Part shown: piece after piece, positions 19,305 to 42,256 of the stretch
Numbering within the stretch: the stretch's first letter is position 1
How the letters are laid out: the number at the start of each line of letters is the position of its first letter
Source: Veterinaerplatzvirus T145P1
Reading direction: 5' to 3' (one strand)
Sequence record: OZ035793.1
Length of the DNA stretch: 45,509 bases
Notes under the pieces: generated by a model
Told to the model about the DNA's origin: nothing
Database searches by the model: none
The model's input: the letters and a program-made list of their open reading frames with translations, nothing else
Program-made: the position numbers and the translations under genes

Positions 19305-20274
19305 AGTAGAAGTTTGGGATAAATGGAAGTGCCATTGATATGTTCGTGTCGAAAGGAAACTGAGCGCCTGTCTGAGTTGAGTAGTTACCTATTACAGATC
19401 CAGGAACAGCCCTAACGGAGCCTCCAGACATGCAAACACCCTTGTATCGTAAGTTGTTATACCCTCCGGTAACTCTAGTTGTAGCGCCGCACCTAAGCAG
19501 CGGGAAGAAACCACCATTTATTGACTGATATCCATTGCTTATTTGTATAAATCCACCAAGAACGAATGGGCGGCGAACACTTGAAAAAACAATCTGACCA
19601 GAACTATTTGACATTGTGAGTCCAGGCCCGGCCGGTGGTGGTTCATTCCTGAATATCACCAGCTGAACATGGGTACTTGCCGCAACATCATCTGTACCTC
19701 CGTAGGTTATATCCCTACACCATATTGTTGATCCATCTGATTCAAGTGATACGTTTGGATTATCCCACTTGCCGAATGGTATTCCGCTAACTGGTAGCGA
19801 TGCTGCACCGTTAACCTGTATGCCCCCAACCCAGGCCGCAGACATTAGCCGCGAGTTGCTTGATATAGCAAGGAAATCAGTTGAGTTCTCAACAAGTATT
19901 CCAGGACTTGATGAGGATGAAGCCGGTAGTATCTCAAAGCAATTACCAGCAAAGTCAATTATTCGACCATTAGCACCATTGAAGTTGCTGATAGTTATCC
20001 TGCCAGTTCCGTCATTTACCTTTTGAAACCCGTTCATGTAATAAACTTCGGGTATAACATCGTAAGCGTCAACGTGGACTGCCTTCGTTGGTAGGCAGAA
20101 AGCCGTAGAGCCAGGAAACATTGTCAATCCAAAATCCCACGAGATTGCCGGGGTTGAAAGTCCATTGGTATTTATTGATCCAGTCACAGCAGGTGCCCTT
20201 AATCCTGCCGTGATTTCCATCGCTGGTCTTCCGTCATTGAGGTCAATCAATATACCCTGCGGCATTATTTCCAC
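19303..20274 (-). CDS. hypothetical protein, possibly tail-fiber/receptor-associated
   Basis: 323 aa Gly/Ser/Asn-rich; convergent with J, co-oriented and overlapping with upstream lipoprotein gene. Confidence 0.5.
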
Positions 20275-20510
20275 TCCTTACTGCCGTGATCTGCAACAGA
20301 ACCGCCGTAACCGCCGCCAGATTTGCTTTCAATGCCAGCGTAGCGAATATCAACCTCACCAGCCGGAACAACTACACCGCCTTTCCACTTAGCTACGCAC
20401 ACGCCGTTTGCTTGTGTTGCACACCACCCATCAGGTCGAGGACCAGAAGAACAACCTACTGTCATGATTACTGCCGCCGAGATGATTGCTGATTTGATGA
20501 AGTTAGTCAT
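20265..20510 (-). CDS. lipoprotein (candidate Cor/Llp-like superinfection exclusion protein)
   Basis: Start trimmed to ATG 20510 (RBS aaggaa); signal peptide with lipobox VGCSS; small size and position near tail fiber genes. Confidence 0.55.
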
Positions 20511-20690
20511 TTTGTATTCCTTATTAAGTTGTTTCGTTTTGATGTAGTAATAATACAACCGTCAGTGCGGAATGTCTTTAGCTATTCGTGCTATTGCATA
20601 CACGTAACCGATGTAACTCGATGTATACAATCTCATCCGCGGAAAATGATATACGCACTGTTACGCAAATTTACGCATTGGTTACATTAA

Positions 20691-20750
20691 AATATCTATA
20701 TATATCAACCTTTTACTCTTATTATTATTATATATATATTACTGTGTATA
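20691..20750. repeat. AT-rich long direct repeat copy A with (TTA)4 tract
   Basis: AATATCTATATATATCAACCTTTTACTCTTATTATTATTA...ACTGTGTATA, near-identical to 39953-40021. Confidence 0.85.
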
Positions 20751-21055
20751 TCATGTAACTACTTCTATAGAGTGTTCCGGTTATAATTTTAATATCATGT
20801 GGATTTATACAGTATTGCGCTGCAGCTATACCAATGCACCCTCAGCAATGAATGATATACACGATATACACGATGGTTACATTGAGCTATAGCTGGGCCG
20901 AGATGCCAAAAAACGTAACTAGTGCCAATGCCTACACGGAATTACAAGGATTCACGTGTAAACTTAAATCAACGATTGGCAAAACCAATTGGACTGGTTA
21001 CGGTGCCGAATATATAGTTAACTCATCGAAAGCAAACAACCAGAGAGATACAGAA

Positions 21056-21250
21056 ATGACCTACTACATTATCAAAGAGAAAAACAACGCACTGTTCGGT
21101 GATTGCTACTTTGGCGGCCCTGCTGGATATACCACAGATAAGAAAGAGGCTGACAGATTCGAGACTAAAGAAGAAGCCCGAGATGTGCTGACTGGTTACT
21201 TCACTGAAGAAGATTTGAAGTCTGTTAAAGTGGTTAAGGTTAAGGAATAA
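21056..21250 (+). CDS. hypothetical small protein
   Basis: ATG 21056 follows an internal promoter-like TTGGAC-18-TATAGTTA plus CATCGAAAGC leader and RBS gagag; the longer ORF from 20852 starts inside AT-rich repeats. Confidence 0.4.
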   Translation: MTYYIIKEKNNALFGDCYFGGPAGYTTDKKEADRFETKEEARDVLTGYFTEEDLKSVKVVKVKE

Positions 21251-21253
21251 AAT

Positions 21254-21451
21254 ATGAAGGCTTTTATAGACATAAATAAGTCACCATACAACGACGAGAA
21301 AGATCCTGAGGTAAGATTAAGGGTAAAATTTAGCACAGGAAGGGAGATAAATATAACAACTACATGTTCTGATTTAGCGAAAGCACTTATGGGTTGTAGT
21401 GAAGTTCCTGTTACTGTTTCAACGAGAAATGTTGAGGTGAAAATAAAATGA
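21254..21451 (+). CDS. hypothetical protein
   Basis: RBS aagga; stop overlaps the next start (ATGA). Confidence 0.5.
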   Translation: MKAFIDINKSPYNDEKDPEVRLRVKFSTGREINITTTCSDLAKALMGCSEVPVTVSTRNVEVKIK

Positions 21452-22413
21452 CTTTCAGGGTTTACACACGAGAGGAGCTAAGCAACGAGGATTACCACTC
21501 AGAGCAAGATCATATCTCCGGCAGCTCACTTGTCGAGATTATCCAAGGATCACCAGCTAAGTGGAAGTTCAAGCAACGCAATAGAGATAGCAAGGCGCTT
21601 AAGTTTGGTACCTTATCTCACTGCATGATTCTCGAACAAGATGTATTCGACAAGGAGTATTTGCGAGCAGTAGACCTTGACGCGATTGAAGGCTTAATTA
21701 CAAGCCAGGCAGGATTAGCAGCAGCACTTAAAAAAGTCGGTGTGGCTGGAACATCAGGGAAGGGCTATAGCGAGCTTGTAGAGATGATGTATCGTTCTGG
21801 CGAGGACTGGCCCATTAAGTGGCTAATTGATCAGCTGGAAAGCGCTCAAGCGCTTGTGGAGGGTAAGGAGCTAGTTAGCGCAGCAGACTATGACAAAGTT
21901 GTGGCTATGCGTGAGGTTCTTTGCAATATTCCGGCATACAATGCAATCGTGAATAGTGAGACGGCGCAGAAAGAGTTATCAATCTTCGGTGAGATTCTCG
22001 GCGTCGGCGTTAAGATTCGAATTGACCATGTTGATGTTGTTGATGGCGTCGTTCGGATCACGGATTATAAAACGACAGCCGACGCAAGCCCTGAAGGATT
22101 TGGTAAGTCTGCATTTAATCACGGATACCTTGCAAAAATGGCGCTTCAGCGCGATCTGTTTGTGAAAGCATTTAACGAGAAGCGCAAGGTTGTTGTAGGA
22201 TTGCTGGCGCAGGAGAAGGTGGAGCCATACCTACCAATGCTGTACACACTAACCGACGAACAGCTGCGAATTGGTCGCCTTCAGTATCTTGAGGCACTTG
22301 CAACTTACAAGAAGTGCAAGGAGCTTGATATTTGGCCTGGATATTCTAACGGCATTACAGAGCAAGAGCTATTGGTTCCTGATTGGGCCATTAAACAATA
22401 TAGAGAGATATAA
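21448..22413 (+). CDS. PD-(D/E)XK family exonuclease (recombination exonuclease)
   Basis: Motifs GTLSHCMILEQ ... IRIDHVD ... ITDYKT consistent with a PD-(D/E)XK nuclease; adjacent to Erf-like and SSB genes. Confidence 0.6.
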   Translation: MTFRVYTREELSNEDYHSEQDHISGSSLVEIIQGSPAKWKFKQRNRDSKALKFGTLSHCMILEQDVFDKEYLRAVDLDAIEGLITSQAGLAAALKKVGVAGTSGKGYSELVEMMYRSGEDWPIKWLIDQLESAQALVEGKELVSAADYDKVVAMREVLCNIPAYNAIVNSETAQKELSIFGEILGVGVKIRIDHVDVVDGVVRITDYKTTADASPEGFGKSAFNHGYLAKMALQRDLFVKAFNEKRKVVVGLLAQEKVEPYLPMLYTLTDEQLRIGRLQYLEALATYKKCKELDIWPGYSNGITEQELLVPDWAIKQYREI

Positions 22414-22414
22414 A

Positions 22415-22879
22415 ATGAACAAAGATTGCTGGCAGACTCCTTTAGACTTATTCAAACCGATAGATGATAAATACAAATTCAAGGTTGACGTGTGCGCAAG
22501 CCAAGAAAACGCGCTTTGTAAATATTACTGGACTGTAGATGATGACTGCTTGCAACAGGATTGGGGAGATGATGGTGGTTTCGTTTGGTGCAATCCACCA
22601 TATAGCAATCCATTACCATTTGTTGAAAAGTGCCAGCAATACGGCTATGCGGTCATGCTATTGAATCAGGATACGTCAACAAAATGGGCTAAGATAGTCT
22701 TTGAAAAAGCATCAAAGGTTATACTTTTATCAGACAGGGTTAGGTTTATAAATCCAGTAACAATGGAGGTTGGTAAGTCAAATCCTAAATGCCAGATGAT
22801 TGTAGTTTTCGACAGGCGTAGCAATTCTGGAGTTGATATACGTTGGTGTTCAATAAAAGAAATTCATAAGCAAATTTAA
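22415..22879 (+). CDS. DNA N6-adenine methyltransferase (phage Dam-like)
   Basis: Start trimmed to ATG 22415 (MNKDCWQTPLDLF); catalytic NPPY motif (WCNPPYSN). Confidence 0.85.
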   Translation: MNKDCWQTPLDLFKPIDDKYKFKVDVCASQENALCKYYWTVDDDCLQQDWGDDGGFVWCNPPYSNPLPFVEKCQQYGYAVMLLNQDTSTKWAKIVFEKASKVILLSDRVRFINPVTMEVGKSNPKCQMIVVFDRRSNSGVDIRWCSIKEIHKQI

Positions 22880-22924
22880 ATAGCATGAATTGCTAAAGAC
22901 AAAACTAAAGGGTGTGGGTATGAT
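22879..22924 (+). promoter_or_regulatory. composite promoter element (variant)
   Basis: AATAGCATGAATTGCTAAAG at Dam stop; 23 bp to TATGAT. Confidence 0.45.
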
Positions 22925-22953
22925 TACCCAATCAACAACGAACGAGGTTAAAG

Positions 22954-23604
22954 ATGAAAATTTCAGAATCATGCAAGTCAATTTTAAACGCTCTACACAC
23001 CGCCAAATCGCTATTTGCGAAGGCTGAAAAATCAAAACAGAACTCACACCTCAAGAACAGATACAGCACCCTTGATGATGTTCTTGCCGCTGTAGAACCA
23101 GGCCTTGAAGAATGTGGTCTTGTAATGTTTCAGAGCGTAATTGATAGCGAAGCTACTGGACTGCTGAAGGTTGAAACGAAGTTGTTCCATGCAGAGTCAG
23201 GCGAGTGGGTTAGCTTCTTAATGATTGTCCCTATCAGCAAGAATGATGCTCAAGGTTACGGATCTGCGCTTACATATGCTCGACGCTACGGAATTACAGC
23301 AGCTTTAGGTCTTAGTCAGGCAGATGACGATGGTAATCTCGCAGCTAAAGGCGTTAAAGACTTTAAACGTGAGCTTGAGAAGTGTAATAGTCTTGATGAG
23401 CTACGTAACGTATGGAAAGAGGCTAAGCAATCACTAGACGCTGCGGGATGGAAGGTTTTTGAACCTCACATTATCGAGCGCAAGGCAGAGATTGAAGCAA
23501 ATGCAGCAACTGGCTTTAACCCTGCAACACCAAAGAAAGTTGCAGAAAAAAGTAGTACTGAAGAAAAGACTGAAGTAGAATCACAACAAATCGACACATT
23601 CTAA
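22954..23604 (+). CDS. Erf-like single-strand annealing protein (putative)
   Basis: GSALTYARRYG-type segment; located between exonuclease and SSB. Confidence 0.55.
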   Translation: MKISESCKSILNALHTAKSLFAKAEKSKQNSHLKNRYSTLDDVLAAVEPGLEECGLVMFQSVIDSEATGLLKVETKLFHAESGEWVSFLMIVPISKNDAQGYGSALTYARRYGITAALGLSQADDDGNLAAKGVKDFKRELEKCNSLDELRNVWKEAKQSLDAAGWKVFEPHIIERKAEIEANAATGFNPATPKKVAEKSSTEEKTEVESQQIDTF

Positions 23605-23645
23605 ATTTAACGGGGCTGCGGCCCCAACCAATAGAGAGATAAAAC

Positions 23646-24071
23646 ATGCACGTAATTACTGGTCAGATTCGACGCGCTCCATTCACTAAAGAAGGTCATA
23701 ATGCTAATGGTACCTGGAAAATGTTTGCGGTTGATTTGAGTGAGCGATACAAAGATAAAGATGGTCAGACTCAGTATAGTAACTATCGCGCAGTCTTCTT
23801 CGCGAAAGAGTCAATGTTAGATTGGTATAATGAAGCTTTTCAAGAGGGTAAAGTTGTTAGCGTTAGCGCAGAGACTCTTTCTGTTGATGTTAGAGATAAA
23901 GATGGCAAGACTTACGTTACTGTCAACATGAACAATCCTAGACTTGAGTTTAGTCAGCGCGGTGAAGGTGGCGTGCAGCAGCAACCTAGACAACAGCAAC
24001 AAGCACAACAGCAACAACAGAATCAACAGCCAAAACAGCAAAAGCAATTCGAAGATGATATTCCTTTCTAA
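23646..24071 (+). CDS. ssb: single-stranded DNA-binding protein
   Basis: Gln-rich linker and C-terminal acidic tail ending DDIPF, the SSB signature. Confidence 0.85.
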   Translation: MHVITGQIRRAPFTKEGHNANGTWKMFAVDLSERYKDKDGQTQYSNYRAVFFAKESMLDWYNEAFQEGKVVSVSAETLSVDVRDKDGKTYVTVNMNNPRLEFSQRGEGGVQQQPRQQQQAQQQQQNQQPKQQKQFEDDIPF

Positions 24072-24075
24072 AGAT

Positions 24076-24100
24076 AAGGCCCCTTTTGGGGCCTTTTTTA
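24076..24100. terminator. bidirectional intrinsic terminator
   Basis: AAGGCCCC-tttt-GGGGCCTT plus T tract, between convergent SSB and tailspike genes. Confidence 0.7.
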
Positions 24101-26683
24101 TTAACCTATTTTAGTGTAAGTCCATTGGTATGTTGCAGCTCCCTTGGCAGTTATCCCGACAGTTCTTCCACTTACATCCATTGAAGTGAAAGCGCCAGTT
24201 TTTGTAATTGTTATTGATGATGTGGAACCATCAAAAAGTACGTCAGCAATTACACTATAGTTAGGTCCAGCACCAGTAACCCAGGTCGAAACCTTGTATA
24301 AACCAGCGTTGTTTGGCAACTCAAAAAGACCAGTTGAAACATTCGCCTGAACAGCCATCGCGCCCTTTCCGGTGTACACACCGTCAGTTTTAAGACCTAA
24401 TGATGAATATGTTTGCTTATAGCCACCAATGATGGCACCACCCATAGGTTCAGTAAACCAGTTCACATTACCCTGACTAACAACAGATATCGCTGGAGAC
24501 CCCCCTTTAGCTGACTGAAACCTACCGCTTAAAATGTCAATTCTAGATGCTGAGTCCTGGGCGTAGATAGTTACAGGATACCCACCAGAACCAGTGTAAA
24601 CCAAGCCGTTATCATTAATGTCATCTTCAGACGAGTCAATGATTACATGGGAAGTTCCAGACGCCTTGATGAACGAAACAACACCGCTAGAACCAGCACC
24701 TGTTGTTCTAACTTCATTCTTCCATGATGTTAGGCCTGAAATTCTGCCATTTGAGTTATTAAACCTAATCAGGCAACAATCTTGCGATCCGTTGGTGTCA
24801 ATAATGTTACCTTCAACGTCCATCCCTAGTATGTTTACGCTATGGCTGTTGATGAAGTTAATCCCAGCACCACCGTAAGAACCAGATGTTGATGATATAT
24901 TACTGGCATCCATTGCGCAGTTAATCATTGTAACGCTCATTACCGAACCAAATTCATAAGGTGAAATGCAATCTGATGCGTAACAAGTCTCAAGCAATAT
25001 TGTCGTTCCTGTCGCCTTTATGAATCCAGTCCTGCAATTCCTGGCCCAAACATTCTGTAGCTTAGTCTGGTATGTTCCAGTGGTGTCCGTGTAGCAACCC
25101 CATGCTCCATGGACTGTGCAATCTTTGATACATGAATTTTCTAGCCCTGTTGCAGAACCAACATTAGAAACGAAGTTAAATGCTATCTTTTGATCATTCC
25201 CTGATGCTGAGGTAGGTGTAGTGCCTGGGTTATAAAAAATGTAAAGTCCCTCAATAAACACTTGATACATTCTTATGTTTTGCGCATCACCCTGAACCAG
25301 GGCGAATAGGTTTATGTTCCCATCAACTGAGATAAATGTTTGCGCCCTGTTAATTTGGTTTGTTCCCTCGCCAATAATTCTTGTACTGTTGCCAATCCTC
25401 ACCGTCCTGTTAATGAACATAAAACCTTTTGGTATGTATACAGTTTTACCGGTATTAACTGCCGCCTGAAGCGCAACTGCGTCAAGTGACTCGTTAAGGT
25501 TTGATGCAAATGGATAAACAAACCGCGCATCCTCAATTGTCGAGAATTTAGATGAAAGAGGAACTAAAGTACCATTGTTTGTAGCACCAAAATCCATGAC
25601 GTTAACAAAGTCACCAAGTTTACTATCCTTACTCCTTTCTACAAATGAGGCCAATGTAGATTTGTAATTCATCGAACTGAATTGTGATTTAGCCTCTGTC
25701 TTTGAATAAACATCTGATCTTGGGTAAACCTCTGATTTTGAATAAACATCAAGCAAACCCCTAGCTCTTTCAGCAGTAGCGCCGCCAACCGACTTCCCGC
25801 CTTCAACCATAATGTATTCGCGTAAGTAGAAGTTTCTTGATCCTTTAGCGCCCGTCATCCTGAGGTGAGTAGCCCTATATGATGAATCAGAATTCAATGC
25901 CGGATATATATCAATCTCATAAGAGCCTTGAGCTCCACTTGTGCCCCTAACACATATAAAAAGCGTAGCGTTGGCTGTAGTGTATGTCGCAGCTAGTGAT
26001 GCTGGAACGTTTGTCATGCTAGATACTACAACTCGATAATTACCACCACTTTTAAATTCAACTTGCTGCCAATCCAATGATGGCATAGCTATTGTCGATG
26101 TGCTTGCGATACCCTCATTGGCTAGAGTAACCAAAGTTGCAGCATCACCAGCGTTGGCAATGACATTAACTGTGTTGTTGTATGCCTCCTGCGCACTACT
26201 TGCGCTTGATTCAGCCTGAGCCTTGCTTGTAGCGGCAGCTTGCTGGCTGGCAGATGCAGCCGATTCGCTTGAAGCCGCATTTGTTTCGCTTGCCTTCGCC
26301 TCATCAACTAATCGTTGTAACTTATCGAAATCAAAATCACCAGATTCAGCCAACTCAACAAGTGACGCAACCTCAGTTTCACGTGACTGATAGTAACGAA
26401 GAGTTTCCGCAACATCCTGAGCTAGCCCCTGAACGGTAATTCCATCATGCGCAAGGATAGCGTAACCAGTTCCAGCAGGAACAGTTTCGGAGTTAGGGTT
26501 GTAAACATTAATCTGCGTATCGCTGATAATTTCTGAGATGGTGTAAATCTGTACTGGTTCAGTTTTAAATACAATGGTTGCACCTACGCGAATCAGTGTA
26601 AGAGGTGCTTTCCATGTTGTCCCGACGCCAGTCACCTCACCACTTGCTGCTAGAGAAGCTGTTCCTGAGTCATAAATTGCCAT
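24101..26683 (-). CDS. tailspike / tail fiber with beta-helix depolymerase-like domain
   Basis: Start trimmed to ATG 26683 (RBS ggag); N-terminal anchor domain, Ser/Ala-rich linker, long Gly/Asn/Thr/Ser-rich repetitive region typical of right-handed beta-helix. Confidence 0.65.
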   Translation of the reverse strand: MAIYDSGTASLAASGEVTGVGTTWKAPLTLIRVGATIVFKTEPVQIYTISEIISDTQINVYNPNSETVPAGTGYAILAHDGITVQGLAQDVAETLRYYQSRETEVASLVELAESGDFDFDKLQRLVDEAKASETNAASSESAASASQQAAATSKAQAESSASSAQEAYNNTVNVIANAGDAATLVTLANEGIASTSTIAMPSLDWQQVEFKSGGNYRVVVSSMTNVPASLAATYTTANATLFICVRGTSGAQGSYEIDIYPALNSDSSYRATHLRMTGAKGSRNFYLREYIMVEGGKSVGGATAERARGLLDVYSKSEVYPRSDVYSKTEAKSQFSSMNYKSTLASFVERSKDSKLGDFVNVMDFGATNNGTLVPLSSKFSTIEDARFVYPFASNLNESLDAVALQAAVNTGKTVYIPKGFMFINRTVRIGNSTRIIGEGTNQINRAQTFISVDGNINLFALVQGDAQNIRMYQVFIEGLYIFYNPGTTPTSASGNDQKIAFNFVSNVGSATGLENSCIKDCTVHGAWGCYTDTTGTYQTKLQNVWARNCRTGFIKATGTTILLETCYASDCISPYEFGSVMSVTMINCAMDASNISSTSGSYGGAGINFINSHSVNILGMDVEGNIIDTNGSQDCCLIRFNNSNGRISGLTSWKNEVRTTGAGSSGVVSFIKASGTSHVIIDSSEDDINDNGLVYTGSGGYPVTIYAQDSASRIDILSGRFQSAKGGSPAISVVSQGNVNWFTEPMGGAIIGGYKQTYSSLGLKTDGVYTGKGAMAVQANVSTGLFELPNNAGLYKVSTWVTGAGPNYSVIADVLFDGSTSSITITKTGAFTSMDVSGRTVGITAKGAATYQWTYTKIG

Positions 26684-26705
26684 TGTGTAGAGTCTCCATT
26701 TGTAA

Positions 26706-26725
26706 AATAGCACGAATTGCTAAAG
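26706..26725. promoter_or_regulatory. palindrome copy AATAGCACGAATTGCTAAAG without + strand -10
   Basis: Lies between the primase terminator and the tailspike start on the - strand; - strand TACAAT at 26729-26734. Confidence 0.4.
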
Positions 26726-34204: not shown

Positions 34205-34283
34205 ATGCTTCTTTTCCGAGCATGGCTCCTGTATCATGTTTACACTAACTTAAACATTGACAAATAAATAAATGGAGGATCAC

Positions 34284-34499
34284 ATGAGGGAAGTAATCAA
34301 CGCCGCTACGGCGTCAACTGGAGGGGCAGCGGTAACTGGAGCGGCAACTGGTCAGATGACTATAGCAATAATCAGCCTTATCGCTTTAATCATTTTTGGT
34401 GCGTGGGGTGCTTACTGGAAGTTTAAGGATAGCCAGGCGATTCGGCGCGCTCTTGAATCAGGAGACTTAAAAACAGCAATCAAGATAAGGAGTAAGTAA
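34284..34499 (+). CDS. holin (single-TMD, pinholin-like)
   Basis: Start at second Met of MEDHM dual-start motif behind RBS ggagga; one hydrophobic helix and charged C-terminus; directly upstream of SAR endolysin. Confidence 0.6.
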   Translation: MREVINAATASTGGAAVTGAATGQMTIAIISLIALIIFGAWGAYWKFKDSQAIRRALESGDLKTAIKIRSK

Positions 34500-34985
34500 A
34501 TGAAGCAGAAGCTGCTAATTAGCGCGGCTACGGCTGCGGCAATATACATCGCAGCGCCGCTTATTGAGCTCGTTGAGGGTGTGGAGAACAAGCCTTACAT
34601 GGACATTGCCGGAATCCCTACAGTTTGTTCTGGTATTACTGGTCCTGACGTTGTTTGGGGTAAGACTTACAGCAATAGTGAGTGCCGGAACCTGCTGGAG
34701 AAGCACATCCAGATTCATGGTAAGTATGTTCAGGATGCAGTTACCTACCCAATTGCACCACAGACAAGAGCTGCATTAATCAGCTTTAGCTATAACGTTG
34801 GCGGCAATGCAATGAGGAAGTCTACCGCTGTAAGGCTAATCAACCAGGGTAAAGTTGAGAAGGGTTGCAACGCTCTCGGGATGTGGAACAAAGCAAGAGT
34901 TAACGGAAAGCTGAAGGTAGTTAAAGGCTTGGTGAATCGCAGGAATGAGGAGATTAAGTTATGTTTAAGTGGATTGCAGCGTTAG
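34500..34985 (+). CDS. SAR endolysin (lysozyme-like muramidase)
   Basis: Gly/Ala-rich N-terminal signal-anchor-release segment followed by E-x8-D-x5-T catalytic spacing (ELVEGVENKPYMDIAGIPT). Confidence 0.8.
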   Translation: MKQKLLISAATAAAIYIAAPLIELVEGVENKPYMDIAGIPTVCSGITGPDVVWGKTYSNSECRNLLEKHIQIHGKYVQDAVTYPIAPQTRAALISFSYNVGGNAMRKSTAVRLINQGKVEKGCNALGMWNKARVNGKLKVVKGLVNRRNEEIKLCLSGLQR

Positions 34986-35350
34986 TAGTGTGCGTAGCTT
35001 TATCTGGATGTTCGGCAACTGATGCACTGACTGGATTGATTGGAAGCAAGCCGGAAGTTACAGCTCAGGCCGGGGCTGAGAACAACAAGGTTGGCGTTGG
35101 GTTAACGAATAAGGTCGATTCCAGCAGCTCCAGTGAAGCCACGGTTAAAGATTCTAAAGTTGGGTCACTTGATAGCTCAAGCGGGAAAAAGACTGCTGAC
35201 AACTCGATTAAGGCATCTACAATCACTGCCGAAAAGATTGAGATTACCAACAACGACTCATCCGCGCCTCCATGGATTGTAATGGGAGCTATGGGGTTGC
35301 TGTTTTTTGTTCCACTTACCGCAATCTTAAGACGCAAAAAAGCCTCCTAA
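34961..35350 (+). CDS. unimolecular spanin (u-spanin, T1 gp11-like architecture)
   Basis: N-terminal lipobox LSGC, Ser-rich periplasmic segment and C-terminal TMD followed by RRKK; overlaps endolysin 3' end. Confidence 0.7.
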   Translation: MFKWIAALVVCVALSGCSATDALTGLIGSKPEVTAQAGAENNKVGVGLTNKVDSSSSSEATVKDSKVGSLDSSSGKKTADNSIKASTITAEKIEITNNDSSAPPWIVMGAMGLLFFVPLTAILRRKKAS

Positions 35351-35366
35351 TGGAGGCTATATTTTT
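35336..35366. terminator. bidirectional intrinsic terminator after lysis cassette
   Basis: A5-AGCCTCC-taat-GGAGGCT-ATATTTTT; contains the spanin stop codon. Confidence 0.65.
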
Positions 35367-35700
35367 AGCTAAATAACTCGTCGTCAGTCATTGTTCCTAT
35401 ATTCATCATCTCTTTTATGTACTTGCTTTGATACCCGTTAAGCGCCTCGAAGTTAAACTCAAATGGCCTCTTCAAGCTACCATTGCTAGCAAACTCACCG
35501 CACTTACCATCAATGTATCCCATGCTAAGCATCTTCGCGCAGAACTCCTTTGAAGCCGCGCTGCAAAACTCCCTATGCGATAATCCTGCCGCCTTACTGA
35601 ATCTCTGAGAGTCCTTATGCTGGTAGATGAATCGCGCCAAATGCTGTCGCGTGAAAAAGCTGTAAGATTCGCAGAACCGGTACAAGTCAAGGATGAACAT
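35365..35700 (-). CDS. hypothetical protein
   Basis: Last gene of - strand operon, followed by bidirectional terminator. Confidence 0.5.
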   Translation of the reverse strand: MFILDLYRFCESYSFFTRQHLARFIYQHKDSQRFSKAAGLSHREFCSAASKEFCAKMLSMGYIDGKCGEFASNGSLKRPFEFNFEALNGYQSKYIKEMMNIGTMTDDELFS

Positions 35701-35702
35701 AA

Positions 35703-35789
35703 TTAACTCCTGAGCACTGCCAAAACAAATAGAAGCATCGAAATTGTTACAACAAAACCAAGTATTATCAGTAGTATCGATTCAATCAT
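35703..35789 (-). CDS. tiny hydrophobic peptide (28 aa, MIESILLIILGFVVTISMLLFVLAVLRS)
   Basis: Not in ORF track; RBS gggg, start 3 nt after ATPase stop, stop abuts next start. Confidence 0.35.
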   Translation of the reverse strand: MIESILLIILGFVVTISMLLFVLAVLRS

Positions 35790-35792
35790 AAA

Positions 35793-37376
35793 TCACCCCA
35801 GCAATCTCGGATTAATGTAAACTTTATCACCAATCAGGCACGTATAGTTTTTCTCATCAAGCATTGGCAGTAAGTGATCTTTAATCTTCGTCATCACTCC
35901 AGCCTGAGCCTCGAACGGCTTAACCTTTCGCGCCGCTTCATACAATGAGCGAATGCCAACAACACCCTTACCGTTTTTACCCTGCTTGATCAGGATATCA
36001 ATCAGCTTATTCATCTCGGCATTGTCGCCAGCGTGACCAGCCGCGTTGGCAGATGACAAATAAGTCTTGCTAAGCTCCTGGAACATGATTACAGCTTCTT
36101 GCATGGTATCAAGCTCAATCTCTCTGGATTTCTGTGGACTCCCACCGCTAGGGTTGAACCAGTTGCGCACTGTGTGAAGAACAGCAGCAATCCTGATAGC
36201 CTGCTTATCGAATTTACCCAGCGCGCCGCGCAACATTGTGTGGGAATACTTACCGCCGTCCGCAAGGTGCGGCTCCATTTCCTGACGTGCCCGGTTTAGA
36301 TATTTCATCGCTGAGTTGCTAACCGTCAACTTTACTTCTTGCTCATTCATGATTTCGTGAACCAGGCGGAAGTAGTTAGCCTTAAGCTCACCATCAATTG
36401 GCTCGTAAGTTGAGTTGCCATTCTCATCGACGAATACACGCTCGCCAAGGAATGATTTTTCACGCACAAGTAGAAAACGTTCCGACACACCAATACCACG
36501 AGCACCAGCATTCATGATTGCGTTTATTGTCTCATCTTGCGCAATTACAGAGATGCATCCCATAGCGACGAAGCTCATGTTGTTTTCTGCGTTCGCACGC
36601 GCAATGGACACGTTACCAGCATCCCACGCCTTGAGTACGAGCTCGCTGTTCGTTTTCTTTGAGCCATCACCATAGGTCATACCTAGCAGAGAGTTCACGC
36701 TCGTTGCTTCATCAGAGATAACCGCGAAGTTGCCCTGGCGGTTGTTTATTCGCGCAAGACCTTCAGGCGTCGTATCTGATACTGGAAATACGATATCGCA
36801 CATCTTTTCCAGCTTCTCCTCTAAATCCTCTTTCTCCTCAAAGAGAGACGCCATCTCTGATGGTGACTTTTCCTGCTTCATCTCTTTGGATAATGCAGAC
36901 AGCTTTGCCATAATCTTTTTACGCTCACGCTTTCGCACTTCATTAAGCCGCTCAGTCTCAGCAATCATTGGCGCAATAGAAAGCGAGTTAATTGCTGATT
37001 TACCTGTGGATGGTGGCTGACTGGTTACTACGTATAGAGAGGTCGGTTGCTGGGTTCCGTGATACTCTACTGTAAAACGTCCCAGCATGGCGGCAGAAAT
37101 ACACCCCAGAAAGTGCATATAAGCTGAAGACTCTGGAAATTGAACAGAACGGGCAATATTGGCTGACAGCTTACCAACAACATCAATGTCATTACCGAGT
37201 GAGATTACGGGATACTTGTCATTAGCCGCATCAATCTCAACTGGCGCTTTCCAGAATGATTGAGACTGACGATATCCATTGGCATTAATAGCGACGCGCA
37301 GGGGTGGGAGGTTGTCTGCGGCAGCAATTGCCATAACCTGTTCAACAGATAGCTTATCTTCGTTGAAATCAAACAT
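35793..37376 (-). CDS. P-loop NTPase of unknown role (possibly replication-associated)
   Basis: Walker A QPPSTGKS and Walker B-like FAVISDEA; own promoter element 37407-37450. Confidence 0.5.
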   Translation of the reverse strand: MFDFNEDKLSVEQVMAIAAADNLPPLRVAINANGYRQSQSFWKAPVEIDAANDKYPVISLGNDIDVVGKLSANIARSVQFPESSAYMHFLGCISAAMLGRFTVEYHGTQQPTSLYVVTSQPPSTGKSAINSLSIAPMIAETERLNEVRKRERKKIMAKLSALSKEMKQEKSPSEMASLFEEKEDLEEKLEKMCDIVFPVSDTTPEGLARINNRQGNFAVISDEATSVNSLLGMTYGDGSKKTNSELVLKAWDAGNVSIARANAENNMSFVAMGCISVIAQDETINAIMNAGARGIGVSERFLLVREKSFLGERVFVDENGNSTYEPIDGELKANYFRLVHEIMNEQEVKLTVSNSAMKYLNRARQEMEPHLADGGKYSHTMLRGALGKFDKQAIRIAAVLHTVRNWFNPSGGSPQKSREIELDTMQEAVIMFQELSKTYLSSANAAGHAGDNAEMNKLIDILIKQGKNGKGVVGIRSLYEAARKVKPFEAQAGVMTKIKDHLLPMLDEKNYTCLIGDKVYINPRLLG

Positions 37377-37406
37377 TACTTCTCTCCGTGTTGTTTCTGA
37401 GCGGCC

Positions 37407-37450
37407 ATTATAACAACGACCGCTTATAAAGCATTATCAATTTGTGCTAT
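37407..37450 (-). promoter_or_regulatory. composite promoter element (- strand, ATPase gene)
   Basis: - strand ATAGCACAAATTGATAA, 22 bp, TATAAT with -10 inside hairpin AGCGG...CCGCT. Confidence 0.5.
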
Positions 37451-37566
37451 TAATTGTTCTTAATCCACTTTAGACACATCCACAATCCAGCCCCATAGAA
37501 TGCAATCTTGAGAACTTCAGCTAAGACAAGGATAATAAAGTATCCACCACCAAGTAAATCAATCAT
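37450..37566 (-). CDS. small membrane peptide (38 aa)
   Basis: Not in ORF track; ATGA overlap with upstream stop; hydrophobic core; stop abuts the promoter palindrome. Confidence 0.35.
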   Translation of the reverse strand: MIDLLGGGYFIILVLAEVLKIAFYGAGLWMCLKWIKNN

Positions 37567-37802
37567 TTTTTAATCTCCATTTCCACAATTTCATAACTTA
37601 TGTAATTATTTATCATTCCAATAAGTGATTTTGGGTATGTCTTCATATGCTTCTTGGCGGAATCTTCATCAAGATGTGCTGATATGTTGTGAAAATTGTA
37701 TTCATAATCCATGCCAATTAGTATGTATATCTTATCGTGAGCATTAATGAAGTTATTTGATTTTATTTCCCCAAGCGACCAGCCCTTTCCTTTTCTAATC
37801 AT
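37563..37802 (-). CDS. hypothetical protein
   Basis: ORF-track ORF; overlaps upstream gene. Confidence 0.5.
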   Translation of the reverse strand: MIRKGKGWSLGEIKSNNFINAHDKIYILIGMDYEYNFHNISAHLDEDSAKKHMKTYPKSLIGMINNYISYEIVEMEIKK

Positions 37803-38152
37803 TTGTATTGAGCCTCAAATCTGTAGTCGCCGCAGATTGTAATAAATCCAACCTCATCATCCCTTAAAAGCTGCCAAGCATTACCCTCTTTATCGTAAAT
37901 GCATCCAGCGCGCTGCCCAAGTCCAGCATGGAGATCTACTTGATATCGCTTACCTTCAGTAAAGTATTTTCGAATAGATGAGCGATGATTGACCTTTGTG
38001 CAATAAATTGTCTTTGTCTTAATATACTTTCCGCGCTCTTCCAGGTTAATCCATTTGCCATCTTTCTTGATTTGCTCTACACCATCTTTTACTCGGGCTT
38101 TGTAGAGTACGTTTTCGTTGCTGATCCAGTTTTTAGTAATCGTAGTAGTCAT
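37799..38152 (-). CDS. hypothetical protein
   Basis: Own promoter element 38187-38235 with CATCGAAACGA leader. Confidence 0.55.
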   Translation of the reverse strand: MTTTITKNWISNENVLYKARVKDGVEQIKKDGKWINLEERGKYIKTKTIYCTKVNHRSSIRKYFTEGKRYQVDLHAGLGQRAGCIYDKEGNAWQLLRDDEVGFITICGDYRFEAQYK

Positions 38153-38186
38153 TTTGTTTTCCTTTGTGTCTTTCGTTTCGATGGGA

Positions 38187-38235
38187 TAACTATACAGGAA
38201 AAGCCCCGAATGGCTTTAGCGATTAGTGCTATTTA
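38187..38235 (-). promoter_or_regulatory. composite promoter element (- strand)
   Basis: - strand AAATAGCACTAATCGCTAAAG, 22 bp, TATAGTTA, CCCATCGAAACGA. Confidence 0.55.
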
Positions 38236-38467
38236 TTGCCTTTCGCCCAAGTGGTGTTATCGCTACCTTATACCAAGTTCCAATTTCTGGATTATTTACA
38301 TTATATGCCAGATCTACATAGCCTAGCCGAAATAGTTTTGGTATACACCTGGATGAATTGCCAGAATCTCGAATCCTTCCTCGACTAAAGTCATAACTTA
38401 TTTGATGAATTTCTCCATTTTGAATGCAGTGGAGGGTTTTTATTGCAGTTTCAGAAATTTTAATCAT
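38216..38467 (-). CDS. hypothetical protein
   Basis: ORF-track ORF; stop overlaps promoter palindrome. Confidence 0.5.
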   Translation of the reverse strand: MIKISETAIKTLHCIQNGEIHQISYDFSRGRIRDSGNSSRCIPKLFRLGYVDLAYNVNNPEIGTWYKVAITPLGRKAINSTNR

Positions 38468-38631
38468 TTATGTTCACCATTAATATTCTTTGCTTTTTCT
38501 ATCGCCTTGAGCATAATCTCGTGACTTTCCAGTAAGTCCTCTCGGAACCAATCTCCACAAGGCCAGCCTTTTCCGCTATAGGCACTTATGACCTCGAGAT
38601 CGAAATAATTTATCTCAGATGGTAATAGCAT
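38464..38631 (-). CDS. hypothetical small protein (55 aa)
   Basis: Not in ORF track; RBS gaggtg; overlapping start/stop with neighbours. Confidence 0.4.
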   Translation of the reverse strand: MLLPSEINYFDLEVISAYSGKGWPCGDWFREDLLESHEIMLKAIEKAKNINGEHK

Positions 38632-38873
38632 CACTTCACCTCATCAAAAGTTGCAATCCCAGGAATAAACATCCCAACCTTCCAGCCTGCAATGGCAATC
38701 CATCCAGAATCGTGCTTGTGCGGTCGCTCAGCGCCATTAATCACCCATTCGTTCGGGATTGTCTTGCCGTTAATGATTAGAGGCTCAGCGTCGTATACAG
38801 AGCCTTTAACGAATGGTGTTAAGGCTTTCTTGTCAGTGCTATTGATAACGTTAGTGCAGATTATTTTAGTCAT
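38631..38873 (-). CDS. hypothetical protein
   Basis: ORF-track ORF. Confidence 0.5.
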   Translation of the reverse strand: MTKIICTNVINSTDKKALTPFVKGSVYDAEPLIINGKTIPNEWVINGAERPHKHDSGWIAIAGWKVGMFIPGIATFDEVK

Positions 38874-39057
38874 TTACAACCTCGTACTCACCTTTATAAA
38901 CAGCGACCTCTTTATTCACATTGTTGACAATCACTGCTAAACAAAGAGCACCCAAATATTTTACCACTTCGTACTCGCAGCCAAGCGTCAGACCATAGTC
39001 CTCACATGAACGTCCACTGCAATCTAAATCTTCGAATTTAACTAACTTAATTTTCAT
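38866..39057 (-). CDS. hypothetical protein
   Basis: ORF-track ORF. Confidence 0.45.
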   Translation of the reverse strand: MKIKLVKFEDLDCSGRSCEDYGLTLGCEYEVVKYLGALCLAVIVNNVNKEVAVYKGEYEVVND

Positions 39058-39067
39058 ATCTCAATCC

Positions 39068-39247
39068 TCAAATAAATGGCAAGCATTCGACGCAGCCAAG
39101 CCCATCACAGCACATGAATTCATCTTCTGACTGGAATTGCTTTGCTAAATCAATGTCTAGCCTTCCGCTCACCACAAGGTCGGTGTAATCTTCATTAAGC
39201 CCAATCAGTGCGCACTCGTTACGTAACTCATCTTTATTCTTTTTCAT
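39068..39247 (-). CDS. hypothetical Cys-rich small protein (59 aa)
   Basis: Not in ORF track; ATGA overlap with upstream gene; C-terminal CCDGLGCVEC. Confidence 0.4.
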   Translation of the reverse strand: MKKNKDELRNECALIGLNEDYTDLVVSGRLDIDLAKQFQSEDEFMCCDGLGCVECLPFI

Positions 39248-39411
39248 TTATCCTGGCCTTTTAAATTATAACGCTCTCTCAGAACTTCAACCCATTCTTG
39301 CGCGTCATTCTCTCTCATGAAGAAACTTAAATTTGGGTACTTGTGAAACCCTTTAAGTTCAACTACCCAATGACCACCTTCGTAACTATAACTAACTTTC
39401 TTCTCTGTCAT
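39244..39411 (-). CDS. hypothetical small protein (55 aa)
   Basis: Not in ORF track; first ORF after the long - strand leader. Confidence 0.4.
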   Translation of the reverse strand: MTEKKVSYSYEGGHWVVELKGFHKYPNLSFFMRENDAQEWVEVLRERYNLKGQDK

Positions 39412-39622
39412 TTTGTTACCTTTTGAGTTTTTTTATTATCGACATCTCTTCAACGTACTCGCTACAACTCGGGATTTTACTCCCGGCCCGGCATCCTAAC
39501 AAAAGGACCCGATCGGCGCTTTGGTGGGTGAGGTAACGCTTCCTCACATTGCGCGGTAGTATTTACTCCTTTTGGTCTCTTTCGAGAGTGACTCAGAGTC
39601 TGCTACCGTGTCGATGAGATTA

Positions 39623-39668
39623 AGTATACGCATAGTTAGCCACACTGTCTTTAGCAAAAAGTGCTATT
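39623..39668 (-). promoter_or_regulatory. composite promoter element (- strand, start of long leader)
   Basis: - strand AATAGCACTTTTTGCTAAAG, 23 bp, TATACT, then TCATCGACACGG. Confidence 0.45.
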
Positions 39669-39682
39669 CGTTAGATTTATGT

Positions 39683-39777
39683 ATTGTTGCAGATATTGCA
39701 ATGATTCACTTGATTATTGCACATACAGCAATATTGCTTCCGATGCAATGATGTTTTTGATTGTTGCGAAAAGTGAA
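39683..39777. repeat. nested direct repeats around a central dyad (candidate iteron/operator array)
   Basis: ATTGTTGC at both ends, TGCAATGAT twice inside, central perfect palindrome GCAATATTGC. Confidence 0.6.
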
Positions 39778-39952
39778 ATTAAGTGGTGAGTGAGTGAATG
39801 AAAGATGGATGGACTACCATACAAGTTGATTTTTACCAATCTATGGGAGCCTCACGGATATACGCGTATCCTCCGTATACTCAGTGTCGTCACAAAAGTT
39901 AGTGACCACTAACCTACGTTTTTACGCGATATATACACACGATATACAATAT

Positions 39953-40021
39953 AATATCTATATATATCAACCTTTTACTTTATTATTATTATTATTATTA
40001 TATATATGTATACTGTGTATA
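39953..40021. repeat. AT-rich long direct repeat copy B with (TTA)7 tract
   Basis: Same sequence as 20691-20750 except the microsatellite length and 3 substitutions. Confidence 0.85.
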
Positions 40022-40227
40022 CCGGTAATTGGTGAGATTATTGATATGTTCCGCGCAGATATTCTGACACCTGTCAGAAATGGATGGCATTGTAGGAATA
40101 AAAGGCACATATATAGGGAATGGCTTCAAAAATCTGTACACATCGGATACGGCACATTTACAACCAGCAATGGAGGGGCCTCTGGAGGTAAAAAGCGTAT
40201 CCATGATAAAATAGACGAAAATATACA

Positions 40228-40256
40228 TTGACCGACACGTAAATAGATGGCAATAT
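40228..40256 (+). promoter_or_regulatory. sigma70-like promoter TTGACC-17-CAATAT
   Basis: Canonical spacing; leader CACTGAAACGAAG; upstream of gene 40297. Confidence 0.5.
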
Positions 40257-40296
40257 AGCAGTCACTGAAACGAAGTAAAACAAACGAGGTATCAAC

Positions 40297-40845
40297 ATGC
40301 AGAAAGTAACACTAGGTGAAGTTATCCGTGAGATGGTGCGCAACGCGATGGTGTCCGAGAGTGGTGAGTTTAAAGTTCCGGTTAGCCAGATATTCAAACT
40401 GGTTCGAGGCAAGGAATACCCTGAAATGGTGTATGACGAAGAGACTAGTGAGATCCTCAACCTGGCAGATAGGGCGATGCCGGAACTAAAGAACTCATAC
40501 ATCTATAACACAGTGTCGAGAATGACAGAGCTTCGCGATGCTAATAAGCGAGCGAGATATAAGTTCATCTGGATTGATGATGACGGAGAGCAAACAAGGC
40601 CCGGTAGCTTCGACGGTGATGGCGCTGATAAATACCTGGTCATATACATTGAGAACGGCGCGCACTGGACTGGGAGTCGCGAAAAGAAAAAGCAGGAAGC
40701 GGAGAAAGAGGCGGCTATCATTGAAAAGTTCAAGTCTAGACTGCTCAAGCTGTCACCAAGTGTTGCTGGCTTGGAAGGTGAAGAACTTAAGGGCGCTGTT
40801 ACAATGATTAATGCTTATCAGGAAATGATTAAGGAGACTAAGTAG
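40297..40845 (+). CDS. hypothetical protein
   Basis: 182 aa; RBS gagg; upstream sigma70-like promoter TTGACC-17-CAATAT at 40228-40256. Confidence 0.55.
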   Translation: MQKVTLGEVIREMVRNAMVSESGEFKVPVSQIFKLVRGKEYPEMVYDEETSEILNLADRAMPELKNSYIYNTVSRMTELRDANKRARYKFIWIDDDGEQTRPGSFDGDGADKYLVIYIENGAHWTGSREKKKQEAEKEAAIIEKFKSRLLKLSPSVAGLEGEELKGAVTMINAYQEMIKETK

Positions 40846-40934
40846 TAGACTACCATACCACTTGTGGTACAGCGAGGAAGAGGTTGAGGTGGCCATTGAG
40901 TTCTATAGGAAAGCTAAATCACTACTGAATGGTA

Positions 40935-40979
40935 AATAGCACTTTTTGCCTAACGCGGTAATGCCATGGATGGCATAAT
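40935..40979 (+). promoter_or_regulatory. composite promoter element
   Basis: AATAGCACTTTTTGCCTAA, 22 bp with hairpin ATGCCA-tgga-TGGCAT, CATAAT, CATCGAAACGA. Confidence 0.55.
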
Positions 40980-41017
40980 AGCCTCATCGAAACGAGATAC
41001 GTAAATGAGGATTTAAA

Positions 41018-41236
41018 ATGAGCAAGGCAATCACACTGCAATGCCTTAAGACAAATAACCCAGAGTTCTTAAAAGGTCACAAATATGTGGCAACCCTGGT
41101 GGATGGGAAAACATGGGCGGTTAAGGGTGGATTCCAGGATTACAAATTCCCACTTGAGCACATACCTGGCGGAAACCTTGGTTTTGTTAGTGACTGCCGC
41201 TCAGTTAAGTTTGTTTTTGAGGTTGTAATGAAATAG
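41018..41236 (+). CDS. hypothetical protein
   Basis: Promoter element 40935-40979 plus CATCGAAACGA leader. Confidence 0.55.
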   Translation: MSKAITLQCLKTNNPEFLKGHKYVATLVDGKTWAVKGGFQDYKFPLEHIPGGNLGFVSDCRSVKFVFEVVMK

Positions 41237-41282
41237 CAATAATTGCTAAATCTTCCGCAAGGCCATTTGATATAGTGGCCTT
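41231..41282 (+). promoter_or_regulatory. composite promoter element with -10 inside hairpin
   Basis: AAATAGCAATAATTGCTAAA, 22 bp, TATAGT; inverted repeat AAGGCCA...TGGCCTT (41259-41282) encloses the -10. Confidence 0.5.
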
Positions 41283-41317
41283 GTTGAAGCAAAACAACCA
41301 ATCACGAGGTATAAATT

Positions 41318-41545
41318 ATGGTTATCAATAGTGTTCGAATCTCTGACGACTACAACGAGCAGGCTGAGGTTCTTGTTTACAAAGTCTTCAATGTCGATCG
41401 GGATACAATGAAGGTTAAGCTCGACCTCAATCCTGATGACGAATCATATCCGTCAACATACATGCTGTACACGCCAGACCAGGCTCGCCAGTTAGCAGCG
41501 TATCTGATGGAAGCGGCCCACCGAGCTGATAAGGGGGTTTTATGA
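41318..41545 (+). CDS. hypothetical protein, paralog family member A
   Basis: Shares RI.D...QAEV ... NPDD ... Y.PD.AR.LAA with ORF 41790..41999. Confidence 0.55.
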   Translation: MVINSVRISDDYNEQAEVLVYKVFNVDRDTMKVKLDLNPDDESYPSTYMLYTPDQARQLAAYLMEAAHRADKGVL

Positions 41546-41757
41546 TTACCGATCGCAAGCTATTTAAAGACATGGAAGGCGACGACTGCTGGATTGACAC
41601 GATGACAAATTTCGGAGAGGTCACTGTTGAGATTGTAATTGACGATGACTCTGGAACCTTTCCCGTGCAAGATGCGGATACCGTACGCGCAATGGGTGAG
41701 CACTTAATCAAGATGGCTGACTACATGGAGAGCCAGGGGAAATTAGCTGTAAATTAA
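41542..41757 (+). CDS. hypothetical acidic protein
   Basis: ATGA coupling to upstream gene. Confidence 0.5.
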   Translation: MITDRKLFKDMEGDDCWIDTMTNFGEVTVEIVIDDDSGTFPVQDADTVRAMGEHLIKMADYMESQGKLAVN

Positions 41758-41789
41758 TCAAGATTCGCATTATCAATAACAACGAGGAA

Positions 41790-41999
41790 ATGAAGATGGA
41801 AAATATTCGTATTGAAGATGTTCACTTTGACCAAGCTGAGGTCGGAATCACAAAAAGCGTTCAAGGATACGTTGTTTATCTAGACTTCAATCCGGATGAC
41901 TACGGGGACGGCCAGATGCTGATGCACTACAGTCCTGATAAGGCGCGCAAATTGGCGGCAGCATTAATCCTGGCGGCGGAGGAGGTGGAGAAGCAATGA
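41790..41999 (+). CDS. hypothetical protein, paralog family member B
   Basis: Paralog of 41318..41545 by visible sequence similarity. Confidence 0.55.
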   Translation: MKMENIRIEDVHFDQAEVGITKSVQGYVVYLDFNPDDYGDGQMLMHYSPDKARKLAAALILAAEEVEKQ

Positions 42000-42256
42000 A
42001 ACGTTTAATGAAATGCATGACTATTATTGCGGCAATGATTGCTCTTACTGGTTGCGAGAAGGCACCTGAGGTTCAGATTCAGTCAGGTGAATTCAATGTG
42101 GAGCGCCTATTCACAGTGGATGGATGTACCGCCTACCGATTCCGAGATAGCGATAGAGCCATCTACTACACAAATTGCAATGGCAGTACGCAGAGTGAGT
42201 ACAGGCACGGCAGGGCCATGAGACAAGAAACAGTTCAGACAGATCGCACTAATTGA
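41996..42256 (+). CDS. lipoprotein (second candidate exclusion/envelope protein)
   Basis: Signal peptide with lipobox LTGC, four Cys in mature part. Confidence 0.55.
   Translation: MKRLMKCMTIIAAMIALTGCEKAPEVQIQSGEFNVERLFTVDGCTAYRFRDSDRAIYYTNCNGSTQSEYRHGRAMRQETVQTDRTN

Follow-up and report, generated by a model that had tools for sequence, protein, structure and literature searches.

Two unrelated lipoproteins encoded by the T1-like phage Veterinaerplatzvirus T145P1: a probable Rtp45-type plug of LptDE and a predicted accessory protein of the DUF4884 superfamily

Sequence record OZ035793.1 (Veterinaerplatzvirus T145P1), analysed over its whole length of 45,509 nucleotides and referred to here as the window, is the genome of a T1-like phage (Drexlerviridae, Braunvirinae). 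A preliminary description of this DNA had pointed to two small lipoprotein genes as candidate exclusion genes, and both were found at the positions it had given. Open reading frame (ORF) 1, at 20265..20510 on the minus strand, encodes an 81-residue precursor with the lipobox TVGC (lipid Cys at position 20), Cys30 and Cys38, and is the Gly-rich C-terminal insertion variant of an Rtp45-type superinfection-exclusion lipoprotein. ORF2, at 41996..42256 on the plus strand, encodes an 86-residue precursor with the lipobox LTGC (lipid Cys at position 20), Cys44 and Cys61, and a core of the form LFTVDGCTAYRFxD...YYTNC, and is a DUF4884-superfamily phage lipoprotein. Taken together, the evidence makes it probable that the two are unrelated lipoproteins with different roles, ORF1 being an LptD plug and ORF2 a receptor-independent accessory.

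The start codon of ORF1 is the ATG at 20510, which lies 7 nucleotides after an AAGGA ribosome-binding site. A mechanical ORF list started the gene upstream at a TTG (20558), and this extension was disregarded because all 34 aligned homologues begin with MTN or MNN at the ATG position. The mature part begins SSG after the lipobox Cys and ends in a Gly-rich tail, so that the VGC lipobox and the Gly-rich sequence noted earlier are both present. The protein matched the Pfam family PF24052 (Phage_lipoprotein) with 132 bits against a cut-off of 27, covering residues 1-80, and chain D of Protein Data Bank (PDB) entry 9RPS with a phmmer E value of 5.3e-35. Its identity to Rtp45, taken from the Rtp genome, was 74% over the full length (E = 2e-42). 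Cys20, Cys30 and Cys38 are invariant in 34 relatives (query included), and the ratio of nonsynonymous to synonymous substitution rates (dN/dS) was 0.10-0.24, with a value of 0.10 between the window and phage SU57. ORF1 thus resembles Rtp45 in its lipobox and its Cys30/Cys38 pair; the placing of the gene, upstream of the receptor-binding protein gene, downstream of the J gene and on the opposite strand, is also the same. Defence-system and NCBIfam libraries gave no match to ORF1. Judged by sequence, ORF1 is an Rtp45 orthologue, the function of which is already known through a solved close orthologue, and it is very probably an Rtp45-type plug of LptDE.

The module in which ORF1 lies points to the same receptor. 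Directly downstream is the gene for an LptD-type receptor-binding protein (19303..20265, minus strand, 320 residues), identified by phmmer and by phrog_1265, and its start codon shares bases with the stop codon of ORF1 in a TAATG sequence, an arrangement that indicates translational coupling. The mechanical ORF list starts this protein at GTG 20274 (323 residues); we place the start at ATG 20265 (320 residues, MPQGILIDL...) as indicated both by the homologues and by the TAATG shared with ORF1. The receptor-binding protein matched chain C of 9RPT (phmmer, E = 5.6e-67), which is the Oekolampad receptor-binding protein solved bound to LptDE, and also phrog_1265 (E = 3.9e-129). A bidirectional terminator-like hairpin (19277..19298) separates this convergent operon of receptor-binding protein and lipoprotein from the gene for a J-like tail tip protein (15846..19271, plus strand, 1141 residues, from the ORF list), and phage SU57 has an annotated terminator at the position of the hairpin. 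In Rtp and SU57 the syntenic J-like genes carry the annotation 'tail protein' or 'tail fiber protein' (lambda J homologue), and the J-like protein is presumed to be the docking partner of the receptor-binding protein. Rtp and SU57 both have the layout seen in the window, a J gene and then the convergent receptor-binding protein and lipoprotein genes. The BASEL study assigned this layout to LptD phages, and showed that JeanPiccard, of the same genus, depends on LptD. ORF1 confirms that the phage is to be read as LptD-targeting. On its other side, the divergently transcribed ORF1 operon is separated from the rightward genes by a 340-base-pair AT-rich non-coding gap (20511..20851), in which there is a run rich in TA (atatatataataataataa) and, on either strand, several hexamer pairs that resemble promoters, in a number not above chance.

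The mechanism proposed for ORF1 follows from the cryo-electron microscopy structure 9RPS, which shows Shigella LptDE-LptM together with Rtp45 (Dunbar et al. 2025, PMC12685063). There, Rtp45 (~6 kDa) is placed at the periplasmic outer-membrane interface near LptD strands 5-8, between LptE and LptM. Its residues 30-35 pair with LptD 318-323, Cys30 and Cys38 form a disulfide, and a hairpin reaches up the LptD lumen and shifts extracellular loop 4 by up to 20 Å, so that binding of the receptor-binding protein is blocked (PMC12685063). According to the same authors, computational prediction of the complex of Rtp45 with LptDE had failed. From the homology and the gene arrangement, we infer that ORF1 serves superinfection exclusion as the cognate protein of a host-recognition module directed at LptD, and that one operon yields both it and the receptor-binding protein. 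It would be exported, lipidated at Cys20 and, with Ser at +2, sorted to the periplasmic face of the outer membrane. There it would bind LptD between LptE and LptM with a beta-hairpin pushed up the LptD lumen, and once extracellular loop 4 was displaced, a receptor-binding protein could no longer bind, be it that of this phage or that of another LptD phage. Infected cells would be guarded against superinfection in this way, and progeny would be spared loss on lysis debris.

The two genes of this module differ widely in how well they are conserved. Between the window and Rtp, dN was 0.135 for ORF1 and 0.62 for the receptor-binding protein, and the identities to the Rtp pair were 74% for the exclusion protein versus 39% for the receptor-binding protein. 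This difference fits a constrained periplasmic or lumenal binding site for the exclusion protein, which may bind an internal, constrained face of an essential machine, with the receptor-binding protein following the variable loops of the surface. ORF1 offers nothing new in principle; it does bear out that the exclusion protein is much better conserved than its receptor-binding protein. In FritzSarasin (MZ501069), no Rtp45-family gene was found and a different lipoprotein stands at the receptor-binding protein locus: this BtuB-type locus (19881..21045) opens with an 89-residue lipobox ORF, bas04_0025 (MKKLIAVIATVAALTG, followed by Cys), which the Rtp45-family profile did not detect. Such an arrangement fits a general rule in the family, by which every receptor module brings its own lipoprotein.

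ORF1 had been proposed to be a Cor/Llp-type blocker because of its place by the tail genes. The central part of that proposal stood, in that a predicted receptor-blocking lipoprotein is encoded beside a receptor-binding protein gene; the family is that of Rtp45 and PF24052, and ORF1 is not a Cor or Llp homologue. No phrog_1119 or Cor Pfam match was obtained for ORF1 at E ≤ 1, the adjoining receptor-binding protein is of the LptD type and not of the FhuA type, and the genus relative JeanPiccard uses LptD. For ORF2, the phrog_1119 match covered only signal-peptide residues 5-26 (E = 0.042), and neither ORF1 nor ORF2 matched an Llp chain at E ≤ 10 in a phmmer search of all PDB chains. On this evidence ORF1 would be a functional analogue of Cor and Llp and not a homologue. 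Like Llp of T5, structures of which have been reported in the T5 work, and Cor of T1, phi80 and N15, it is, by prediction, a small lipoprotein of the outer membrane that faces the periplasm, has its gene next to that of the receptor-binding protein and renders the receptor of its own phage unusable. It differs from them in its target, LptD rather than FhuA, and in that no sequence relationship was found. A further difference is that Llp and Cor act by long-range allostery, whereas the Rtp45 type works by physical loop displacement through the barrel lumen (PMC12685063).

The second gene, ORF2, is preceded by a strong Shine-Dalgarno sequence (GGAGGAGGTGGAG), and its start overlaps the stop of an upstream 69-residue ORF as ATGA. 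The N-terminus of its product reads MKRLMKCMTIIAAMIALTGC and continues with EKA. The LTGC lipobox and the four Cys reported for it earlier are present. Of these, Cys7 is an unconserved residue inside the signal peptide, Cys20 takes the lipid, and Cys44 and Cys61 are invariant. The protein matched phrog_6360, a family of unknown function, at E = 1e-20. All 22 close homologues have a precomputed match to PF16225 (DUF4884); they include rtp3 of Rtp and SU57_0006, which are annotated merely as hypothetical, and bas02_0065 of JeanPiccard. A profile built from the close homologues found 1432 cluster representatives (clustered at 50% identity) at E ≤ 0.001 and 369 at E ≤ 1e-10, and 119 of the 120 family representatives that were aligned match PF16225 (E < 0.01). 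Most members have 75-100 residues and carry both a signal peptide and a lipobox of the form L-[ATS]-[GAS]-C; after the lipid Cys, K is often found at position +2 and E at position +5.

The lipid Cys20 is kept in 119 of 120 sequences in one alignment and in all 130 of another, which spans 33-97% identity. In these 130 sequences (query included), L38, F39, C44, R48, F49, D51, Y57 and C61 are invariant, and the family core F33-x-V35-x-x-L38-F39-T-x-(D/E)-G43-C44-T-V-Y47-R48-F49-x-D51 ... Y57-(F/Y)-T-N-C61-x-G63 ... G72-K73 is nearly so. A further Cys pair (CGKxC) occurs in about half of the family and is lacking in the clade of the window. Among close relatives dN/dS was 0.38-0.54. ORF2 ends in DRTN and is without the terminal Trp of most close relatives (Rtp, SU57, JeanPiccard and metagenomic copies), which end in DRTNW. 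In its conserved core and N-terminal lipobox, ORF2 is like DUF4884 (PF16225, phrog_6360 and phrog_902), and we class it by sequence as a divergent member of this catalogued and widespread phage lipoprotein superfamily.

Searches for a function or a fold gave little for ORF2. A literature search on DUF4884 gave two incidental mentions, with no function named in the search listings, the ORF2-family profile had no match among PDB sequences at E ≤ 10, the PADLOC library gave nothing, and the NCBIfam matches were weak and confined to the signal peptide. An AlphaFold2 model from the 130 sequences has six antiparallel beta strands, with a mean predicted local distance difference test score (pLDDT) of 78 and scores of 79-91 in 10-residue blocks over residues 21-80. 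With this model the best Foldseek match in the PDB was at E = 0.46 with no informative fold, and the BFVD matches were only to unnamed, DUF4884 or 'lipoprotein' entries.

A lipobox is a short pattern, and we therefore considered how far it can be trusted. ORF1 and ORF2 both satisfy a rule of the PROSITE PS51257 type (K/R within the first 7 residues, an uncharged stretch, and [AGS]-C at position 20 in both proteins), which bears out the lipoprotein signal claimed for them. Shuffled ORFs gave 1.7 +/- 1.3 matches to the pattern per 346 ORFs, so that the pattern is weak evidence by itself. The lipoprotein calls are solid because the lipid Cys is invariant in 34 relatives of ORF1 and 130 of ORF2, and that for ORF1 additionally because the structure of its orthologue was solved as a lipoprotein. 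The two proteins are not paralogues: hhalign aligned residues 2-25 only, which is the signal peptide, and found no alignment between the mature domains of the Rtp45 and DUF4884 families.

A scan of all six frames for lipoboxes found three credible genes, namely ORF1, ORF2 and one for a 129-residue protein at 34961..35350 (plus strand), and two antisense junk ORFs also matched. The count of two lipoproteins given in the preliminary description was thus one too low. The overlooked third is a unimolecular spanin (u-spanin) with the lipobox LSGC (lipid Cys at position 17) and a C-terminal transmembrane helix; its C-terminal hydrophobic stretch (WIVMGAMGLLFFVPLTAIL) is followed by RRKKAS. It matched phrog_1804, 'Rz-like spanin', at E = 1.4e-48, and the syntenic gene in FritzSarasin is annotated as u-spanin. 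Its gene begins within the last 25 nucleotides of the endolysin gene and completes a lysis cassette (34272..35350) of holin (34272..34499, plus strand, 75 residues), endolysin (34500..34985, plus strand, 161 residues, with a hydrophobic N-terminus) and u-spanin. In its N-terminal lipobox, C-terminal transmembrane helix and place after the endolysin gene it is like the T1 gp11-type unimolecular spanin; it is unrelated to ORF1 and ORF2, and is a protein of lysis and not of exclusion. A lipobox by itself does not imply exclusion, and the argument that the presence of two lipoproteins suggests layered exclusion is weakened, since the third lipoprotein of this genome is a lysis protein.

Homologues of ORF2 were found by tblastn in 119 phage records, and among the BASEL Drexlerviridae they occur in JeanPiccard, which uses LptD, in FritzSarasin and KarlJaspers, which use BtuB, and in PeterMerian and JakobBernoulli, which use FhuA. 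The DUF4884 gene of FritzSarasin is bas04_0064 (E = 1.3e-31). ACG-M12, a close LptD-type relative, has an Rtp45-type lipoprotein and the receptor-binding protein, and no DUF4884 match was found in its six frames at E ≤ 10. In AugustePiccard and CEB_EC3a, the DNA match to the window begins only just after ORF2. Since DUF4884 and Rtp45-type modules occur separately among phages, the ORF1 and ORF2 genes are inherited independently. The possibility that ORF2 is a cognate LptD blocker was rejected, as the family is found in LptD, BtuB and FhuA phages and is missing from ACG-M12; because its distribution does not follow receptor type, ORF2 is not a blocker of the terminal receptor of its own phage. 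The earlier suggestion that ORF2 is an exclusion lipoprotein therefore held for the lipoprotein call and failed for a blocker matched to its own receptor.

Outside the Drexlerviridae, the family was found in same-strand arrays of small ORFs on contigs of 84-351 kilobases with phage-like genes, in a Cupriavidus necator prophage just upstream of NinB, in jumbo phages, in Pseudomonas genomes and in Pseudomonas phage Dolphis. A pattern scan of genome contigs returned 10 loci, mostly from Pseudomonas, and as the pattern was narrow this says little about the host range of the family. Every genomic context examined placed the family in same-strand small-gene arrays of phages or prophages. No conserved partner gene was found beside DUF4884, with no neighbour family common to more than 11 of 49 loci.

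We are confident that ORF2 is an exported, lipidated protein with one disulfide and that its role is independent of receptor type. In E. coli, Glu at +2 leads to Lol-dependent sorting to the outer membrane. ORF2 is thus predicted to be an outer-membrane-anchored periplasmic protein with a six-stranded beta-sheet and one disulfide, encoded by a stand-alone accessory gene in the small-gene array upstream of the terminase genes. As ORF2 is kept when the receptor module is swapped, it most likely acts not on the terminal receptor but on a conserved part of the envelope or on the machinery of incoming phages. Among candidate roles, that of a receptor-independent effector of the envelope or of entry ranks first, that of a blocker of another receptor second, and a Spackle-like or lysis role third. 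Extended to the family, the first becomes a tentative and still rather speculative proposal, in which DUF4884 lipoproteins would be widespread receptor-independent phage envelope effectors, made in lytic growth, anchored in the outer membrane, and acting on the entry apparatus of incoming phages or on some conserved machine of the periplasm or outer membrane. T1-like phages would then combine two layers of exclusion or protection that differ in mechanism: a receptor plug that can be swapped and a DUF4884 factor that stays constant.

The layered exclusion of the preliminary description can also be recast without a cognate receptor, with ORF2 inactivating another outer-membrane receptor, such as a TonB-dependent transporter or a porin, against heterologous phages or colicins. 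ORF2 is a small outer-membrane-type lipoprotein with a disulfide, as are Llp and Rtp45, its sporadic and accessory occurrence is as expected of competition genes, and it stands in a small-gene array that is presumed to be early. However, it adjoins no receptor-binding protein gene, has no conserved partner, and outside the signal peptide has no homology with Cor, Llp or Rtp45. The presence of the family in phages of Enterobacteria, Pseudomonas and Cupriavidus and in jumbo phages, and with Bacteroides-type lipoboxes, is also hard to fit to a strain-variable receptor. We regard inactivation of another receptor as rather doubtful.

Action at a periplasmic step of infection or lysis appears unlikely. 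ORF2 would here inhibit, in the manner of Spackle, the cell-wall hydrolases or ejection proteins that incoming phages bring, protect against lysis from without, or modulate the action of its own phage's holin, endolysin and spanin. T4 Spackle provides a precedent for periplasmic exclusion through lysozyme inhibition, and the strong conservation of the core across unrelated hosts, with R48, F49 and D51 invariant or nearly so, fits a conserved target such as peptidoglycan enzymes or phage machinery. However, ORF2 lies outside the lysis cassette and distant from it, and Pfam, NCBIfam, PDB sequence and fold searches gave no likeness to lysozyme inhibitors or Spackle. It is highly improbable that ORF2 is instead a dispensable filler gene with a chance lipobox, for although the pattern is expected 1.7 times per 346 ORFs, dN/dS indicates only moderate constraint and the gene is missing from related phages, the lipid Cys is kept in 119 of 120 and 130 of 130 relatives from very distant phages, the gene has a strong Shine-Dalgarno sequence and translational coupling, and an invariant Cys pair is typical of exported proteins.

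Some observations weigh against the reading of ORF1 as an LptD plug and of ORF2 as a receptor-independent DUF4884 accessory. ORF1 is unlike the 76-residue Rtp45 type in a 5-residue Gly-rich insertion (SKxGGGYGG) near the C-terminus; this 80/81-residue variant is common in Rogunavirus-like phages. Its partner, the receptor-binding protein, is only 39% identical to Rtp44, and the range of phages that ORF1 would exclude is therefore an extrapolation. The evidence given for Rtp45 in the accessible part of PMC12685063 is a structure rather than an in vivo exclusion assay. For its part, ORF2 alone scored 18.9 bits against PF16225 (E = 0.0012), below the 30-bit gathering cut-off, as a divergent member whose clade is without the CGKxC pair, and its structural model is of moderate confidence, with no informative neighbours in the PDB or BFVD. 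The early expression and membrane sorting of ORF2 are assumed from its position and from the +2 rule. What the sequences show directly is the homology, conservation and distribution of the two proteins and the arrangement of their genes; any activity of ORF2 is inferred.

The finding is an ordinary one overall, with one uncharacterised family as a lead. ORF2 is useful in this respect, as its family has more than 1400 cluster representatives and an almost invariant core and is without a solved relative or a fixed gene partner. The family is present in well-characterised, genetically tractable BASEL phages, and a function found for ORF2 could serve the whole DUF4884 family.

Around ORF2, two small ORFs immediately upstream (41318..41545 and 41790..41999) are paralogous, with 38% identity over 58 residues (E = 1e-9). 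Both match phrog_13316, of unknown function, and share the motif D(L/F)NPDD ... Y(T/S)PD(Q/K)AR; no equivalent of them is kept beside DUF4884 genes at the 49 loci compared elsewhere. After ORF2, a 109-residue ORF (42440..42769) matches only the C-terminal ~80 positions of PHROG families of 180-250 residues (phrog_2452, positions 151-228 of 235; phrog_17613, 'ATPase', positions 172-243 of 246). Either the ORF encodes a domain that stands alone or the gene is truncated. The idea that it is a truncated form of the P-loop nucleoside triphosphatase of JeanPiccard or FritzSarasin was rejected, as no similarity was found to the nucleoside triphosphatases at or near that position. Promoter and terminator scans of the ORF2 region gave nothing above chance except a clean terminator-like hairpin at 42785..42804.

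In the genome as a whole, the terminase subunit genes at the left end are followed by head and tail genes up to the J-like tail tip protein gene. The short convergent operon comes next, and after it recombination genes, a lateral tail fibre gene, replication genes and the lysis cassette; the right end is a long array of small plus-strand ORFs running back to the terminase. Compared with the public sequence of Veterinaerplatzvirus T145P1, identity was 99.9% over the region 19000-22000 and 99.2-99.4% over the region 40500-43500, and both regions are 88-98% identical to other Braunvirinae, including SU57 and 2725-N35. Near-identical Drexlerviridae genomes also occur in public records under unlikely hosts, as 'Campylobacter phage' A110b, A16a, E6 and others, and as 'Pseudomonas phage PsgS01F', the receptor-binding protein of which is 96.9% identical to that of the window. 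These records are probably coliphage contaminants or carry mislabelled hosts.

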